Assembly (NCBI GenBank): GCA_947627845.1
Contig: CANQXQ010000002.1
Coordinates: 1 to 43,022 of the forward strand
Source: an uncultured Bacilli bacterium
Lineage (GTDB): Bacteria > Bacillota_I > Bacilli_A > RF39 > UBA660
DNA length: 43,022 bases
Direction of reading: 5' to 3'
Positions 6,738 to 36,980 of the stretch are shown here, one piece after another. The translations under genes and the position numbers were made by a program. The notes below the pieces were generated by a model. It was not told where the DNA came from, searched no databases, and saw only the letters and a program-made list of their open reading frames with translations. How positions within the stretch are numbered: position 1 is the first letter of the stretch; each line of letters starts with the position of its first letter.

Positions 6738-7067
6738 ATGATGTATAGCGATAAGATTTACTTAACACCTCAAGAGATATTAGATAAGGAGTTTAAGATT
6801 GATGCTAGGGGTTATCGTCCACAAGAAGTAGATAAATACCTAGATATGGTTATACGTGATTATACCGAATTTATAAGCATCATAAAAAGAAATGAAAAGG
6901 AAATAAAAGACTTAACTGATGATAATGCTAAACTTAAAGCGGAAATTCGCTCTTTAAGAGAACAACTTGTAGCTAGTGAATCATCAGGAGGAAGTGGTAC
7001 TTCAAATGTTGATTTATTAAAAAGAATAAGTCAATTAGAAAAAGTTGTATTTGGAAAATATGAATAA
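6738..7067 (+). CDS. gpsB: Cell-cycle protein GpsB (DivIVA-domain)
   Basis: ILDKEFKIDARGYRPQEVDKYLD is the DivIVA/GpsB N-terminal motif, followed by a coiled coil. SD AAGGAAGTG precedes ATG 6738. rnpB lies immediately downstream, as I recall for Bacillus. Confidence 0.85.
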   Translation: MMYSDKIYLTPQEILDKEFKIDARGYRPQEVDKYLDMVIRDYTEFISIIKRNEKEIKDLTDDNAKLKAEIRSLREQLVASESSGGSGTSNVDLLKRISQLEKVVFGKYE

Positions 7068-7417
7068 TATCACGACAAATGCTGCATAAATATTATGTAG
7101 AGGAAAGTCCATGCTCACAAAGTCTGCGATTGACTTTAGTGTTCGTGCTTAAGGAAAAAATAACTTAAGGTAGCTTTTAGCTAACGGCAATGAAATATTC
7201 TAAAAGGAAACTCAAGAATAGAGTAGTTATAAAGTGCCATAGTAACGTACAAACTGGAAACGGTGGAAATGGAACGCGGTAAACCCCACGAGTGAGAAAT
7301 CCAAATTTTGGTCGGAGAACTCTTACAAAAGAATTAAATGGCGTAAGGGCCTAGTTTACTAGGAGATAAATATTTGTCGCCCGATAAGGGTTACAGAACA
7401 TGGCTTATGCGATATTA
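7066..7417 (+). ncRNA. rnpB: RNase P RNA, Bacillus-like type B
   Basis: Universal GAGGAAAGTCCATGCTC near the 5' end, and ACAGAACATGGCTTA near the 3' end. P1 pairing of AATATC(AC) at 7066 with GCGATATT at 7409-7416. The stretch is locally GC-enriched and non-coding. Confidence 0.85.
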
Positions 7418-18316: not shown

Positions 18317-19421
18317 TGAAGAATTTATTATTGCATTAAAAAATATTGTTAAAGAAAAAGGTATAAGTGAAGATGTTGTCTTTGAGGGAATGGAACAAGC
18401 TTTGCTTACTGCTTATAAGAAAAATTTTGATAGTAAGACTAACGCTAGAGTAGAAATTAATAAAGAAACTGGCGAAATAAAAGTTTATTCTTATTTAGTC
18501 GTTGTAGATGATGTTGATTATGGTCATGAAGAAGTTGATGAGGAGGGTAATGTTGTAAAAATACCACCAGAAATTAATCCTGATGCCCAAATCATTTTAG
18601 AACAAGCCGAAGAAATGGTCCCAGGAATTAAAGTAGGAGAAACTATTGAATATGAAATAACTCCTAAAGATTTTGGTCGGGTTGCTGCCTCCACTGCTAA
18701 ACAAGTTTTAACGCAAAAAATTAGAGAAGCCGAAAAAAATAGTATTATTGCCGAATTTCAAGATAAGCAAGATGAAATGCTTTTAGGTTTAGTCGCGATG
18801 GAAGATGTCCGCAACTATTATATTGATTTTGGTCGAACTAGAGGAATTCTTCCTAAAAGTGAAATTATTCCTGGTGAAACAATAAAAATGGGTTCTAATA
18901 TTCGGGTTTATGTAACTAAAATCGAAAATAATCCCAAAGGACCTCTAATATTATTATCAAGAAAACATTATGGCTTTGTTAAAAGATTATTTGAACTAGA
19001 AATTCCGGAACTTCAAGATGGTACTTTAATTATGCATGCCTGTGTTCGGGAGGCGGGAATTCGTTCTAAAATCGCCGTATCAAGTACTAATGAAAGAATT
19101 GATGCGATTGGTACATGTATTGGGGAAAGAGGTTCTCGGATTGCTAGTATTTTAAAAGAACTTAATGGAGAAAAAATCGATGTTGTTTTATATAGCGATG
19201 TTCCCGAAGACTATATTAAAAATGCTTTGAGTCCTGCCAAAAATGCGATAGTTAGTATAACTGATCCGGTAAAAAAAGAGGCTTTAGCGGTTGTCGATGA
19301 AAAAGAACTTCCTTTAGCTATAGGTAAAGGTGGTAATAATATTCGTCTCGCCAGTAAACTTACTAAATATAAAATTAGTATTAAAACTATGCAAGAAATA
19401 AACCAAGAGGGTAATAAGTAA
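18309..19421 (+). CDS. nusA: Transcription termination/antitermination factor NusA
   Basis: N-terminal domain, S1 and two KH domains (GERGSRI, IGKGGNNIRLA). SD AAAGAGGTGA precedes ATG 18309. Confidence 0.95.
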   Translation: MNNEEFIIALKNIVKEKGISEDVVFEGMEQALLTAYKKNFDSKTNARVEINKETGEIKVYSYLVVVDDVDYGHEEVDEEGNVVKIPPEINPDAQIILEQAEEMVPGIKVGETIEYEITPKDFGRVAASTAKQVLTQKIREAEKNSIIAEFQDKQDEMLLGLVAMEDVRNYYIDFGRTRGILPKSEIIPGETIKMGSNIRVYVTKIENNPKGPLILLSRKHYGFVKRLFELEIPELQDGTLIMHACVREAGIRSKIAVSSTNERIDAIGTCIGERGSRIASILKELNGEKIDVVLYSDVPEDYIKNALSPAKNAIVSITDPVKKEALAVVDEKELPLAIGKGGNNIRLASKLTKYKISIKTMQEINQEGNK

Positions 19422-24277: not shown

Positions 24278-25258
24278 ATGGCCGTTGTTTCTATGAGTTA
24301 TTTATTAGAAGCAGGAGTTCATTTTGGACATCAAACAAAAAGATGGAATCCTAAAATGAAAGAGTATATTTTTGGAGCAAGAGAAGATATTTATATTATC
24401 GATCTTGAAAAAACAACTAAAAAAATGGAGGAAGCCTACGAAGCAATTAAAATGATCGCTGATAATGGTGGAACATTCTTATTTGTAGGTACTAAAAAGC
24501 AAGCCCAAGATGCTGCGAAAGAAGAAGCTTTAAGAAGTAATTCTTATTATGTAACTGAAAGATGGTTAGGAGGAACCTTAACTAATTTTAGAACTATTAG
24601 AAGAAGAGTTAAACGCCTTGAAGAAATTGAAAATATGGAAAAAGATGGTAGATTTGAAGTTTTACCTAAAAAAGAAGTTATTGGTCTTCGTAAAGAATAT
24701 GATAAGTTAAATAAAATTTTAGCTGGTATTCGGGAAATGAGTAAACTACCAAATGCTTTAATTATCGTTGATCCTAAAAAAGAAATTAATGCTATAAGAG
24801 AAGCTCGTAAATTACGTATTCCGGTTTTTGGTTTAGTTGATACTAACTGTGATCCTGATGATGTAGATTATGTTATTCCTGGCAATGATGATGCTGTAAG
24901 AAGTGTTAAAGTTGTTTTAGGAGTTTTAACTAATGCTATTTGTGAATCACGTGGTTTAGAAATGGTTGATTATGTTACTGAAGAAGATAAAAAATCTAAA
25001 AGTGAACCAAAAACTATGGATGAGTTAATTAAGGAAGAACCAAAAGAATTAAAAAAATCTGATTTTGAGGATGAAGAACCAAGAAAAGAAGAAAAACCTC
25101 ATAAAGAAAAAAAAGTTGTTGAACCCAAAAAAGAAAAAAAAGTAGAAGTTAATTATGATGATATGACTTTAGCTGAACTTAAAAATGTGGCTAAAGAAAA
25201 AGGCATCAAAGGTTATTCTACAATGAAAAAAGAAGATTTAATTAAAAATTTAAAATAA
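24278..25258 (+). CDS. rpsB: 30S ribosomal protein S2 with a roughly 90-aa C-terminal extension
   Basis: Canonical S2 core ([19 protein letters not shown]) through about aa 235. A Lys/Glu-rich linker and a terminal HeH-like module follow. Confidence 0.95.
25163..25258 (+). repeat. Copy 1 of a 96-nt module encoding [31 protein letters not shown] (Rho_N/HeH-like)
   Basis: By hand alignment, about 85 of 96 nt are identical to 34535-34630, including the stop codon. Confidence 0.85.
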
Positions 25259-33161: not shown

Positions 33162-33190
33162 TTGACAAAACCCATATAATATCATATAAT
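33162..33190 (+). promoter_or_regulatory. Sigma-A promoter of infC-rpmI-rplT
   Basis: TTGACA 33162-33167, 17-nt spacer, TATAAT 33185-33190. Confidence 0.7.
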
Positions 33191-33196
33191 TAAAAA

Positions 33197-33336
33197 GAAA
33201 TTTAAAAAGGAAAGCGAAATTTTTTCCACCTGATGAACAAAGTTCATAGGTAAAAAGCCTGTTATAATAATTAAATAAGGTTTTTAGGTGGAATAAATCA
33301 TATTCTACCTTTTTAATTGTATGGAGGTGCTTCAAT
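33197..33336 (+). promoter_or_regulatory. L20-leader-type attenuator upstream of infC
   Basis: About 140-nt untranslated leader. It contains terminator hairpin 33286-33314 and a competing long-range helix (33225-33233 with 33284-33292). Confidence 0.6.
33286..33314 (+). terminator. Leader terminator of the infC operon
   Basis: 9-bp stem AGGTGGAAT / ATTCTACCT (one G-U pair), 7-nt loop, then TTTT. Confidence 0.6.
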
Positions 33337-33867
33337 ATAGCAAGTGCAAATAAAGAATTGTTAATTAATGAACAAATTAAAGTTAGTGAAATGATGGTTA
33401 TTGGACCCAATGGTGAACAAATGGGTCAAAAAGGGTTAAATGATGCTTTAACTTTAGCAAGATATGCCGGATTAGATCTAGTTTTAATGAATGATTCTGG
33501 AAATATGGCTGTTGCCAAAATTATGGATTATAACAAATATCGTTATGAAAGACAAAAGAAATTAAAAGAAGCTCAAAAAAAACAAAGAGAAACTAATAAA
33601 GAATTAAAAGAATATCGTTTGTCTGTAACTATTGATGTTCATGATTTTGAAACTCGGGTTCGTAATGCTAAAGAATACTTAATTAAAGGTCACAAAATTA
33701 AAGCTTTTATTAGATTTAAAGGCCGTCAAATGGCTCGACCAGAATTAGGAAAAGATGTTTTAGAACGTTTTGCTGAGGCCCTAAAAGAAGAAGCCACAAT
33801 TGAATCTTCCCCAAAAATGGATGGAAGACAAATGTATATGCTATTAGCACCAATTAATAATAAGTAG
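33337..33867 (+). CDS. infC: Translation initiation factor IF-3, probable non-canonical ATA start
   Basis: IF3 N- and C-domains (LINEQIKVSEMMVIGPNGEQ, YRLSVTIDVHDFETR). The only strong SD (GGAGGTG, 33323-33329) lies 7 nt before in-frame ATA 33337. The track's TTG 33358 has no SD. Confidence 0.8.
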   Translation: MASANKELLINEQIKVSEMMVIGPNGEQMGQKGLNDALTLARYAGLDLVLMNDSGNMAVAKIMDYNKYRYERQKKLKEAQKKQRETNKELKEYRLSVTIDVHDFETRVRNAKEYLIKGHKIKAFIRFKGRQMARPELGKDVLERFAEALKEEATIESSPKMDGRQMYMLLAPINNK

Positions 33868-33880
33868 GAGGAAAAATAAT

Positions 33881-34075
33881 ATGGCAAAGACTAAACAAAA
33901 AACTCATAAAGCAAGTAGTAAAGTTTTAACAAAAAAGAAAAATGGTACCTTAACTTATAAAAAAGGTAATGGTAACCATAAAACCAATAAAGATTCTTCT
34001 AAGCAAGTTCGTCAAAGAAGAAATAAAGGAATTTTAGGCAAAGGAGAAGCTAGCAGATTAAAATCTGTTATCTAG
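33881..34075 (+). CDS. rpmI: 50S ribosomal protein L35
   Basis: Basic 64-aa protein between infC and rplT. AGGAGG SD. Confidence 0.9.
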   Translation: MAKTKQKTHKASSKVLTKKKNGTLTYKKGNGNHKTNKDSSKQVRQRRNKGILGKGEASRLKSVI

Positions 34076-34084
34076 GAGGGTAAA

Positions 34085-34630
34085 ATGACAAGAGTTAAAG
34101 GTGGAACTGTTTCCAAAACAAGAAGAAGAAAAGTATTAAAAGAAGCTAAAGGTTACTTTGGTAGTAAACATAGATTATATAAAACAGCTCAAGAACAAGT
34201 ATTCCATAGTGGAGCTTATGCCTACCGTGATCGTAAAGCTAATAAAAGAAATTTCCGTAAATTATGGATTACCAGAATTAATGCCGCTTGCCGAGCTAAT
34301 GATATTAGCTATTCTAAATTTATGAATGGTTTATCAAAAGCTGGTGTGGAAATTAATCGTAAAGTATTAAGTGAAATGGCTATTAATGATGCTCAAGGAT
34401 TTGCTAATCTAGTTAAAATTAGTAAAGATGCCTTAAATGGTAAAGCTACTAAACCTGCTAAAGATACTGCCAAAAAAGAAGAACAAGTAGCCCCTAAAGC
34501 TGTTAAAGAAACTAAAAAAGTTGATTATAGCACAATGACTTTAACTGAACTTAAAAATGTTGCTAAAGAACAAGGCATTAAAGGCTATTCAACTATGAAA
34601 AAAGAAGAATTATTAAATAATTTAAAATAA
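34085..34630 (+). CDS. rplT: 50S ribosomal protein L20 with a roughly 60-aa C-terminal extension
   Basis: Canonical L20 core ([26 protein letters not shown]) to about aa 118. A Lys/Ala-rich linker and the same HeH-like module found on S2 follow. Confidence 0.95.
34535..34630 (+). repeat. Copy 2 of the 96-nt module, encoding [31 protein letters not shown]
   Basis: About 85 of 96 nt are identical to 25163-25258 by hand alignment. Confidence 0.85.
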
Positions 34631-34652
34631 GACTAAAATTAGTCTTTTTTTC
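34629..34652 (+). terminator. Intrinsic terminator after rplT
   Basis: Stem AAGACTA / TAGTCTT, loop AAAT, then TTTTTT. Confidence 0.75.
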
Positions 34653-34699
34653 TTCTTTTTTTAAGTAATTAATGTTATAATTTGAGATAGGTGATTTAG

Positions 34700-35228: not shown

Positions 35229-36980
35229 ATGAATTTAAAAGACGAATTTATTAATTATTTTGTAAGCCTAGGCCATGTTCAAATTCCTAGTGCTCCCTTA
35301 ATTCCTGAAAATGATCCCTCTGTTTTATTTAATACAGCAGGTATGCAACCTTTAATCCCTTACTTAATGGGAAAACCTCATCCTGAGGGCAAAAGATTAT
35401 GTGATTATCAAAAATGTGTTCGTTTAACGGATTTAGATAGTATTGGCGATAAAACTCATCATACTTTTTTTGAAATGCTTGGAAATTGGAGTTTAGGCGA
35501 TTATTTTAAACAAGAAAGTATAACTTATAGTTTTAATTTTTTAACTAAAGTTTTAAATATTCCTCTAACTAAATTAGCCGTTACGGTTTTTGCTGGTAAT
35601 AGTTCAATTCCTCGCGACAATTTATCTGCAAGTATTTGGGAAAGTTTAGGTCTTAGTAAAGATCGCATTGCTTATTTAGGAGAAGAAGATAATTTTTGGA
35701 TTGCTGGTGAAACTGGTCCTTGTGGTGGCGATACCGAAATATTTTATTTTCGTAGTAATGACCCAGTTCCTAAAGTATTTGATCCTAAAGATGAACGTTG
35801 GGTAGAAATTTGGAATAATGTTTTCATGGAATTTAATAAAGATGAAAATGGCACAATTACCGAATTACCTCAAAAAAACGTTGATACCGGTATGGGTTTA
35901 GAACGGGTTGTGGCTGTTCTTGAAGGAGTCGATGATAATTATAAAACTTCTATTTGGCACGAAATAATTTCTAAAATTGAAGAAATAAGTCATAAACCTT
36001 ATGAAAATAATGAACCAAGTATGCGAATTATTGCCGATCATATTCGAACTGCCGTTTTTATTAGTGCTGATTATGCTGGTATTAAACCTAGCAATACTGA
36101 TCAAGGCTATATTTTAAGAAGATTAATTAGAAGAGCCATTCGTCATGCGAAAAAATTAGAAATAGATATGAATTCCGATTGGATTTTAGAGGTTGCTAAA
36201 GTAGTTATTACTAAATATGAGGATTATTATAAAGAAATTAAACAGAATAAAGAAGTTGTCTTAGAGGTTTTAAAAAATGAAACAATTAAATTTAATCGTA
36301 CTTTAGAAAAAGGTTTAAAAGAATTTAGTAAATTAATTAGTCATTTAGACTCTAAAACAATTGATAAAGATAATGCTTTTAAACTATATGACACCTATGG
36401 TTTCCCAATTGAACTTACTGTGGAAATGGCCAAAGAACAAGGCTTATGGGTTGATACTGAGGGCTTTAAAGAAAAATTTAAGGAACATCAAGAATTATCA
36501 AGAACCGCATCGGCTGGTAAATTTAAAGGTGGTTTAAGTTCTCAAGGCGAAATAGAAACTAAATATCATACCGCAACTCATCTTTTAAATGCCGCTTTAA
36601 AAGTAGTCGTTGGCCCGGATGTTCATCAAAAAGGGAGCAATATTACTTCTGAAAGAATGCGTTTTGATTTTTCATGTGACCATAAATTAAGTGAAGAAGA
36701 AAAACGGGAAACAGAAAGTTTAGTAAATAAATGGATTATGGATGATCTTCCGGTAAATATGAGTACAATGCCCAAAGAAGAAGCTATTAAAAATGGGGCC
36801 GAAGCTATGTTTATTGAAAAATACGCTGATATAGTTAATGTTTATACTATTGGAGATGTTTCCAAAGAAATATGTGGAGGACCTCACGTAAAACATACGG
36901 GCGAATTAGGCAAGTTTAAAATAATTAAAGAAGAAGCTAGTAGTGCTGGTGTAAGAAGAATAAAAGCCATTTTAGAATAG
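35229..36980 (+). CDS. alaS: Alanine--tRNA ligase, short form (583 aa)
   Basis: Class II AlaRS catalytic core (FNTAGMQP, HHTFFEMLGNWSLGDYF, GPCGGDTEIFY, VDTGMGLER, YILRRLIRRA). Editing-site motifs HTATHLL and CGGPHV. It ends at GVRRIKAILE with no C-Ala domain. Confidence 0.9.
   Translation: MNLKDEFINYFVSLGHVQIPSAPLIPENDPSVLFNTAGMQPLIPYLMGKPHPEGKRLCDYQKCVRLTDLDSIGDKTHHTFFEMLGNWSLGDYFKQESITYSFNFLTKVLNIPLTKLAVTVFAGNSSIPRDNLSASIWESLGLSKDRIAYLGEEDNFWIAGETGPCGGDTEIFYFRSNDPVPKVFDPKDERWVEIWNNVFMEFNKDENGTITELPQKNVDTGMGLERVVAVLEGVDDNYKTSIWHEIISKIEEISHKPYENNEPSMRIIADHIRTAVFISADYAGIKPSNTDQGYILRRLIRRAIRHAKKLEIDMNSDWILEVAKVVITKYEDYYKEIKQNKEVVLEVLKNETIKFNRTLEKGLKEFSKLISHLDSKTIDKDNAFKLYDTYGFPIELTVEMAKEQGLWVDTEGFKEKFKEHQELSRTASAGKFKGGLSSQGEIETKYHTATHLLNAALKVVVGPDVHQKGSNITSERMRFDFSCDHKLSEEEKRETESLVNKWIMDDLPVNMSTMPKEEAIKNGAEAMFIEKYADIVNVYTIGDVSKEICGGPHVKHTGELGKFKIIKEEASSAGVRRIKAILE

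Follow-up and report, generated by a model that had tools for sequence, protein, structure and literature searches.

A Rho_N/HeH-type module at the C-termini of ribosomal proteins S2 and L20 and of FtsH in a family of genome-reduced gut Bacilli

[quoted passage not shown] The two ribosomal protein genes are located in the window, which is the whole stretch of 43,022 nucleotides analysed on contig CANQXQ010000002.1 (positions 1 to 43,022, forward strand). Taking the different lines of evidence together, it is probable that the domain has been inherited vertically on its three hosts, that the high nucleotide identity of its S2 and L20 copies reflects a steady state and that the tails act as RNA-binding arms. 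The tails themselves are a real and conserved decoration of the ribosome, which occurs lineage-wide and has already been catalogued by the databases.

The 96-nt repeat encodes a HeH/SAP-like domain, which in this family is permanently attached to S2, L20 and the membrane protease FtsH, in each case at the C-terminus and by way of a disordered, charged linker. In the favoured explanation the DNA identity of the copies is a steady state, maintained by strong selection against changes of the peptide in combination with a narrow choice of codons.

Genomic context of the S2 and L20 genes

The host genome comprises 983 kb on 88 contigs with a GC content of 27.1% and a completeness of 92%. Within the window rpsB (24278..25258, forward strand) encodes a ribosomal protein S2 of 326 aa that is extended at its C-terminus, as recognised from the open reading frame and the Pfam matches Ribosomal_S2 and Rho_N. 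The Ribosomal_S2 domain (PF00318) spans residues 9-223 and profile positions 1-215 of 216 (E 1.3e-96). It is followed by a linker of residues 227-295 (24956..25162, forward strand), the composition of which (17 Glu, 17 Lys, 7 Asp) results in a net charge of -6, and by the S2 copy of the Rho_N/HeH module, which consists of 31 residues plus the stop codon (25163..25258, forward strand) and was identified by alignment, Pfam and genome scan. The ribosome-binding site of tsf (GGAGG) lies directly 3' of the module, and the translations identify rpsB-tsf as the S2 operon context.

The second gene, rplT (34085..34630, forward strand), encodes a C-terminally extended ribosomal protein L20 and was likewise recognised from its open reading frame and from Ribosomal_L20 and Rho_N matches. 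Here the Ribosomal_L20 domain (PF00453) covers residues 3-109 and the entire profile (positions 1-107 of 107, E 3.3e-46). The initial annotation had pointed out that this protein is longer than the typical 118 aa or so; the open reading frame indeed comprises 181 aa, compared with frames of 117-130 aa for the ordinary L20 that many other families of the class have kept. The L20 linker (residues 119-150; 34439..34534, forward strand) is rich in Lys, Ala and Thr, has a net charge of +4 and is predicted to be disordered. It leads into the L20 copy of the module (34535..34630, forward strand), again 31 residues plus the stop codon, for which an AlphaFold2 (AF2) model was available in addition to alignment, Pfam and genome scan.

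The rplT gene is the last one of infC-rpmI-rplT, and the two genes at its 5' side, infC (IF3, 169 aa) and rpmI (L35, 64 aa), occupy positions 33358..34075 on the forward strand and were named from their translations. A terminator-like hairpin (AGACTAAAATTAGTCT) followed by a T-run was read by eye directly 3' of rplT (34631..34665, forward strand); it was not called by the terminator consensus scan because it contains too few G-C pairs. No L20 leader was found by Rfam in the window. Both the S2 and the L20 core are therefore present as full-length domain matches in their expected operon contexts.

The two copies of the module in the window

The ungapped comparison of positions 34535-34630 (L20) with 25163-25258 (S2) revealed 85 identical bases out of 96 (88.5%), stop codon included. 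An earlier codon-by-codon estimate of about 85 was thus exact, and machine alignment did not lower it; MAFFT recovered the same pair. In the coding part 82 of 93 bases and 26 of 31 residues are identical, the codon differences being divided into five synonymous and five non-synonymous ones, and the longest exact run between both modules measures 16 nt. The repeat finder reported the tails as repeat family D1 (25146-25258 and 34518-34630, 113 nt, 84%), the longest direct repeat in the window. A blastn search with the module, which had been proposed as a check, returned the L20/S2 pair at E = 5e-24 against the 983-kb genome.

The similarity is confined to the module. In the three successive 60-nt blocks upstream of it 29, 20 and 20 of 60 bases are identical between S2 and L20, and in the block downstream 13 of 60. 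The local alignment of both linkers scored 16.0, well within a null distribution of 506 cross-genome linker pairs (mean 14.5, maximum 27), 31% of which score as high. The description of the preceding linkers as unrelated is hereby confirmed.

A third look-alike at the DNA level (repeat family D5, 18332-18364) was detected in the N-terminus of NusA (ALKNIVKEKGIS). It was rejected as a further module since the genome scan gave no Rho_N match for it, and it is attributed to chance or composition.

Assignment of the module to the Rho_N/HeH class

Both tails match the Pfam profile Rho_N (PF07498) above its cut-off of 24.9 bits, in L20 with residues 149-178 (37.2 bits, E 2.8e-9) and in S2 with residues 295-322 (37.3 bits, E 2.6e-9). 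Hence two non-homologous ribosomal proteins, one of each subunit, do carry one and the same module, and the tail is a real profile match and not the generic low-complexity segment that had been considered as a counter-argument. The SAP profile gave sub-threshold scores for the two proteins (13.7 and 10.9 bits, cut-off 23.9), and Ish1 was found as a further weak secondary match.

The AF2 model of full-length L20, built on an alignment of 43 L20 sequences, shows the normal helical core up to residue 117, a segment of pLDDT below 50 (residues 125-145) and a tail consisting of a helix (153-163), an extended loop and a second helix (173-180). The module modelled alone (36 residues) reached a pLDDT of 90.5 with helices at positions 8-18 and 28-35. 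According to Foldseek the best neighbours of this model in the PDB are the N-termini of Rho (1a8v, 9ff7, 6wa8, 5jji), with SAP domains (Tho1, Hcc-1) also among the best matches; these top matches superpose at about 1 Å rmsd with TMq values of 0.72-0.83, their E-values of 2-8 not being significant at a length of 36 residues. A sequence search of the PDB likewise identified the Rho N-termini as natural relatives of the module, with the best-scoring chain, an entry named only 'E8', ranking slightly above them. A solved ribosome with such a tail was not found in the PDB.

A comparison of 27 diverse tails showed no variation at L11, A15, K16, G22, K27 and K28 and hardly any at K12, S24, M26 and L31. 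These positions make up a hydrophobic core and a conserved lysine surface, and the net charge of the module amounts to only +2 to +4. By profile, fold and basic patch the module is a bona fide member of the Rho_N/HeH class.

This class is very widely reused. In a profile search with the module against 1.84 billion representative proteins 7933 representatives matched at E <= 1e-3. The top matches were tandem Rho_N/SAP/HeH arrays and short fragments, which say little about bacterial hosts, and a scan of the best 103 module-bearing representatives showed additional SAP matches in 67 and additional HeH matches in 22 of them.

Further copies in the genome and distribution among relatives

The six-frame scan of the G000 genome detected three Rho_N copies above the threshold, which are located on S2 (40 bits), on L20 (39.4 bits) and at the C-terminus of FtsH on contig C16 (32.7 bits). 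A fourth, weak match (E 0.03) within a helicase-like protein of 1022 aa on contig C25 fell below the cut-off and was left uncounted.

None of the three hosts possesses the OB domain or the RecA-type ATPase of Rho, and the Rho RNA-binding domain (PF07497) was not found at E <= 0.1 in this 92% complete draft of 88 contigs. As no resident Rho gene was found, the module is not regarded as a remnant of one. A strict rule by which the tails replace Rho was discarded, since the relative G027 has both a tailed L20 and a Rho-like protein (416 aa with Rho_N at its N-terminus; the name was assigned by size and sequence). A search of the same draft for proteins containing more than one S1 domain gave none, and the genome seems to lack ribosomal protein S1.

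Within the genus the module was present in 23 of 24 genomes. The Rho_N frames have lengths of about 320, 180 and 665 aa, and the translation of 80 loci identified these as S2, L20 and FtsH. Sampling of the family covered 59 high-quality genomes from 47 genera, which are strongly reduced (0.7-1.6 Mb); each of them gave Rho_N matches, in most cases in at least two of the three frames with the size of S2, L20 and FtsH. The loop of the L20 module is degraded in some genera of the family (GIAVTGLKK, INVTGMKK). In other families of the class the module occurs on L20 alone or on both L20 and S2. In a table of 5.8 billion proteins the best 120 relatives of L20 and the best 120 relatives of S2 all carried PF07498 beside the ribosomal domain. 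The three fusions are accordingly old, predate the family and have been inherited vertically across the whole of it.

The gene order differs between genera. Both genes were readable in 18 genomes of the family outside the genus of G000; there rplT is directly followed by rpsB with 23-90 nt between the frames, which places the modules about 1 kb apart. In the genus of G000 S2 is located 9.4-11 kb upstream of L20.

Gene conversion and movement of the module in relatives

Conversion between the S2 and L20 tails is real in the relatives G001, G004, G013, G030 and G336, where the identity of the copies enters the variable linker. The alignment of the two G001 tails extends over 164 nt, 60 nt of which are linker, with an identity of about 91%, and the module contains no synonymous difference. 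The linker scores of G001 (33.5), G030 (30) and G013 (28) exceed all 506 null pairs, and those of G009 (24) and G004 (23.5) exceed 99% of them. In G336, which has the two genes adjacent to each other, the modules share 103 of 108 positions and the linker score is 32, compared with the null maximum of 27. The genome G030 is a member of another family.

The module tree is in line with these cases, as the S2/L20 pairs of G001 and of G004 each appear as sisters. The host label changes seven times on this tree, whereas strict orthology would give one change and shuffled labels gave 14.4. The process behind it is an occasional non-crossover gene conversion, in which one tail, linker included, is overwritten by the other. 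Concerted evolution throughout the genus was considered and rejected: the four-point statistic, calculated for sister pairs from the identity matrix, was positive in six, negative in three and zero in one, which is too weak, and conversion is secure solely in the individual cases with shared linkers.

In G008 an L20-type tail (DYSKMT...) was detected on the cytoplasmic end of a membrane protein with two transmembrane segments, for which a match to the S26 signal peptidase remained sub-threshold (E 0.005, 17.2 bits, cut-off 22.9). The module has thus been moved or copied in relatives (G008 as well as the five conversion cases), and the notion of a mobile cassette holds at the scale of the family. 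The part of this notion that did not stand is its use as an explanation of the 88% identity in G000.

Proposed function of the tails

The module is under strong purifying selection, and the sequence of its tether is free to vary; in S2, L20 and FtsH the tethers are disordered, charged and 30-70 residues long. On this basis each module may represent a flexible, weakly basic nucleic-acid-binding arm with single-stranded RNA, either mRNA or rRNA, as its likeliest ligand. We infer binding of a polyanion, most likely of single-stranded RNA, because of the conserved lysines, the role of the N-terminal helix bundle in Rho and the precedent of the plant protein RHON1. The helix bundle of Rho is basic and has been proposed to bind the RNA backbone non-specifically (PMC11347177). 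Its R(M/L)RK block, described in the same study, aligns with the MKK of the module. Deletion of the bundle in Rho serves as a further precedent for nucleic-acid binding. In the case of RHON1 of Arabidopsis, an isolated C-terminal Rho-N motif of 40 aa bound ssRNA and shifted 16S and 23S rRNA fragments in EMSA (PMC3458557). Binding of this kind would increase the affinity with which both ribosomal subunits, and FtsH at the membrane, locally engage a shared polyanionic ligand. The acidic linker of S2 and the low charge of the module are features that point against an RNA-binding arm.

For the S2 arm a more specific role seems plausible, namely that of an aid in mRNA capture in a genome with no detectable S1. 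S2 is the docking site of S1 and lies near the mRNA path. A replacement of S1 by the S2 tail is compatible with the missing multi-S1-domain protein but leaves the tails of L20 and FtsH unexplained.

A different function, which we regard as rather unlikely, is that of a protein-protein docking or self-association domain, by which the tails would bring ribosomes to a common partner or to membrane quality control and co-evolution with this partner would preserve the similarity of the copies. The HeH clan does include protein-binding members (LEM). The presence of the tail on FtsH in every genome of the genus with a complete set and on the cytoplasmic end of the G008 membrane protein would suit a docking role. 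The same is true for the copies within one genome, which are more alike than orthologues across distant families, as seen in motifs such as TVKELK.LAK, shared by the trio of G030, and GYSALKKAEL..LIE.N, shared by the pair of G036. However, where identity reaches into the unconstrained linkers it is conversion, beyond selection alone, that homogenises the copies. Furthermore, the conserved surface residues are lysines, as would suit a polyanion, the sole free-standing Rho-N motif examined experimentally binds RNA (PMC3458557), and no candidate gene for a partner was identified.

Similarly improbable appears an integrated system in which the arms of S2, L20 and FtsH would all bind one scaffold, either mRNA or AT-rich nucleoid DNA, and would in this way physically couple transcription, translation and the quality control of membrane proteins in tiny cells that seem to lack Rho as well as ribosomal protein S1. 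Recurrent conversion would then keep the copies interchangeable, as would fit a single ligand.

Origin of the sequence identity in G000

The preferred reading, a vertically inherited nucleic-acid-binding arm, includes a steady-state origin of the 88% identity. The initial annotation had instead taken this identity to imply a recent duplication or gene conversion in G000, in which one tail was copied to the other gene and the 11 differences arose since. This is very unlikely and was largely refuted by the module tree and the cross-genome identity matrix. In the maximum likelihood tree (42 module sequences, 108 nt) the S2 module of G000 forms a clade with those of G002 and G016 (support 99/92), and its L20 module is paired on the tree with the G016 orthologue (92/86), in agreement with the species tree derived from the FtsH, L20 and S2 cores. 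A phylogeny of the module against its hosts, which had been suggested as a check on recent copying, thus does not show the two tails of G000 as sisters; each groups by host gene with sister species.

The identity matrix leads to the same result. The S2 and L20 modules of G000 share 90 of 108 positions. The L20 module of G023 is equally close to the S2 module of G000 (90/108), and the S2 module of G006 is even closer to the L20 module of G000 (94/108) than the latter is to its own S2 counterpart. The mean S2-L20 identity is somewhat higher within genomes (83.9 of 108) than across genomes (80.3), a difference that would arise either from conversion or from co-evolution with a shared partner. For the sister species G000 and G002, adding up the identities gives a within-genome total that exceeds the cross-genome total by 8, which would favour copying.

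At synonymous sites 5 of 26 codons for identical residues differ between the S2 and L20 modules of G000 (0.19), compared with 0.26 +/- 0.10 in cross-genome S2-L20 pairs. When the S2 and L20 cores are compared with their orthologues, the same measure amounts to 0.22-0.27 for the sister species G002 and G016 and to 0.30-0.35 for more distant species such as G006, G007 and G019. The synonymous sites are near the plateau set by codon bias, and as the differences in G000 reach the level seen between species, they give no clear signal of recency.

Codon usage in G000 is extremely narrow, with AAA for 89% of Lys, GAA for 87% of Glu, AAT for 92% of Asn and TAT for 91% of Tyr. Random codons drawn at genome-wide usage predict 75.7 +/- 2.9 identical bases of 93 (81%) for the two peptides; the observed 82 represent a mild excess (P ~0.016), as do the 21 identical codons of 26 compared with 16.9 expected (P ~0.04). 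This excess would favour copying, but it has its counterpart in codons that are conserved throughout the family. Among them is CTT, a rare Leu codon, which occurs within GAA-CTT-AAA in the majority of the S2 and L20 modules of the genus and is hence not specific to G000. The identity of 88% is therefore explained by a conserved peptide together with the extremely narrow choice of codons at 27% GC. The alternative of strong purifying selection, raised in the initial annotation for the DNA, holds in a modified form, in which the selection acts on the peptide and an extreme codon bias adds to it (81% predicted, 88% observed).

Further points in favour of recent copying are the rank of the pair as longest direct repeat in the window, the motif ELKNVAKE, which is common to both G000 copies and absent from the sister species, and the conversion demonstrable in relatives. 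Against it stand the linkers, which are without similarity in G000, and the longest exact run of 16 nt, which is short for a RecA-type exchange. An interpretation of the 88% identity as the mark of a recent duplication or conversion in G000 is consequently not supported. The two copies have been separate at least since the split from the nearest sampled sister species, and an old or short conversion tract in the lineage of G000 is possible.

Lineage-specific extensions of ribosomal proteins are common, and the degraded L20 loop in some genera would suit neutral, tolerated decorations that are kept since their removal brings no advantage, but this is hardly credible given that 59 of 59 strongly reduced genomes (0.7-1.6 Mb) keep Rho_N matches, that 26 of 31 residues are identical between the paralogs while the adjoining linkers evolve freely and that the surface lysines are invariant.

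Significance and comparison with known systems

A whole family of genome-reduced gut Bacilli thus carries a domain of nucleic-acid-binding type on FtsH and on one protein of either ribosomal subunit. Should mRNA or rRNA prove to be the ligand of the arms, these would provide a simple example of ribosomes acquiring new RNA-handling parts, with the S2 tail anchored where S1 normally docks in a genome in which no S1 was found. The family also offers a natural series for conversion between short coding repeats, which lie 1 kb apart where the genes are adjacent and about 10 kb apart in the genus of G000. Moreover, conserved paralogous domains in a genome of 27% GC are expected to be nearly as similar as the two copies described here, and an identity of 88% over 96 nt is therefore in itself no evidence of recency.

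The literature search, which also covered extensions of bL20 and uS2, brought up no publication on Rho_N or SAP tails of bacterial ribosomal proteins, which agrees with the statement of the initial annotation that no such case was known to it. The combination of Rho_N with a ribosomal protein has nonetheless been annotated automatically and is precomputed in public protein tables.

The closest structural relative is the N-terminal helix bundle of Rho (PF07498, HeH clan CL0306; 1a8v, 5jji, 6wa8, 8hsj, 7oqh), to which the module is linked by a profile score above the cut-off, by the two-helix HeH fold with a superposition of about 1 Å rmsd and by the basic block at the start of helix 2. In contrast to Rho, the module is C-terminal and free-standing on a disordered linker, its hosts are S2, L20 and FtsH, and neither an OB-fold RNA-binding domain nor an ATPase follows it. 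SAP, HeH and LEM domains (Tho1, Hcc-1/SARNP; PF02037, PF12949) have the same fold (TMq 0.72-0.81) but belong to eukaryotic nuclear proteins, and thus to different hosts in a different domain of life.

RHON1 may be regarded as the best functional precedent for the tails, as a Rho-N motif has been recruited there to the C-terminus of an unrelated protein (PMC3458557). Unlike the hosts described here it is a partner of RNase E in plant chloroplasts and not a ribosomal protein. Among ribosomal proteins the C-terminal helix of bS6 in Bacteroidetes (PMC7797042) is comparable as a clade-wide C-terminal addition to a universal ribosomal protein. Extensions of the bS6 type are short segments that pack on rRNA, whereas the tails of S2 and L20 consist of a folded, known domain on a disordered tether of 30-70 residues, and one and the same domain occurs on both subunits as well as on a protease and is occasionally homogenised by conversion.

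Arrangement of rplT and rpsB

In most genera of the family the two Rho_N (PF07498) modules lie about 1 kb apart, because rpsB directly follows rplT (loci L165-L184 from other genera of the family). Within the genus of the genome studied here the spacing of the two genes amounts to 9.4-11 kb and rpsB, encoding S2, comes first; rplT and rpsB have therefore been separated by a rearrangement.

The S2 and L20 modules (window positions 25163-25258 and 34535-34630) and most of their orthologs in the genus retain the rare leucine codon CTT (13% of the leucine codons genome-wide) in the context GAA-CTT-AAA. This retention could reflect selection at synonymous sites or could be a remnant of past conversions.

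Further hosts and look-alikes of the module

A third Rho_N module is located outside the window at the C-terminus of FtsH (contig C16 of the same genome, 14977-16950). The same tail was detected on FtsH throughout the genus, and family-wide in frames of FtsH size. One relative (genome G008, locus L079) has an additional module host, a 286-aa protein with two transmembrane segments and a C-terminal Rho_N tail of the L20 type (DYSKMTMAELKVLAKKQGVKGYSTMRKDELIKKLK), which has a weak, sub-threshold match to signal peptidase S26 (E 0.005).

The DNA encoding the NusA N-terminus (ALKNIVKEKGIS; window 18332-18364, forward strand) resembles the module DNA with 79% identity over 33 nt. Since this segment gave no match to the Rho_N profile, the likeness is probably an effect of composition. 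A weak, sub-threshold Rho_N-like segment was also found on the minus strand of contig C25 of the same genome (8767-8865), in the middle of a helicase-like protein (1022-aa frame) in which a W-EEMY-YAK-YFEHHGNL-FKT-DG motif recurs about seven times.

The whole draft genome (92% complete) yielded no Rho RNA-binding domain and no multi-S1-domain protein; its S1-domain matches are single and occur in frames of 701-725 aa, in a 118-aa frame and in NusA.

RNA elements and other features of the window

Class B bacterial RNase P RNA (7067-7412, forward strand; RF00011, 263.8 bits) was the sole Rfam family above threshold within the window. An ORF at 35229-36980 (forward strand, 583 aa), named alanyl-tRNA synthetase-like from its translation only, is short and stops past the apparent editing domain; the usual C-terminal domain appears to be missing.

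Upstream of infC, a perfect sigma-70 consensus promoter (TTGACA-17-TATAAT; 33162-33190, forward strand) is followed by a terminator-like hairpin on the same strand (33286-33310) immediately before the gene. Promoter and hairpin (33162-33310) are laid out much as in the leader attenuators that L20 controls in Bacilli, although the Rfam L20_leader family gave no match.
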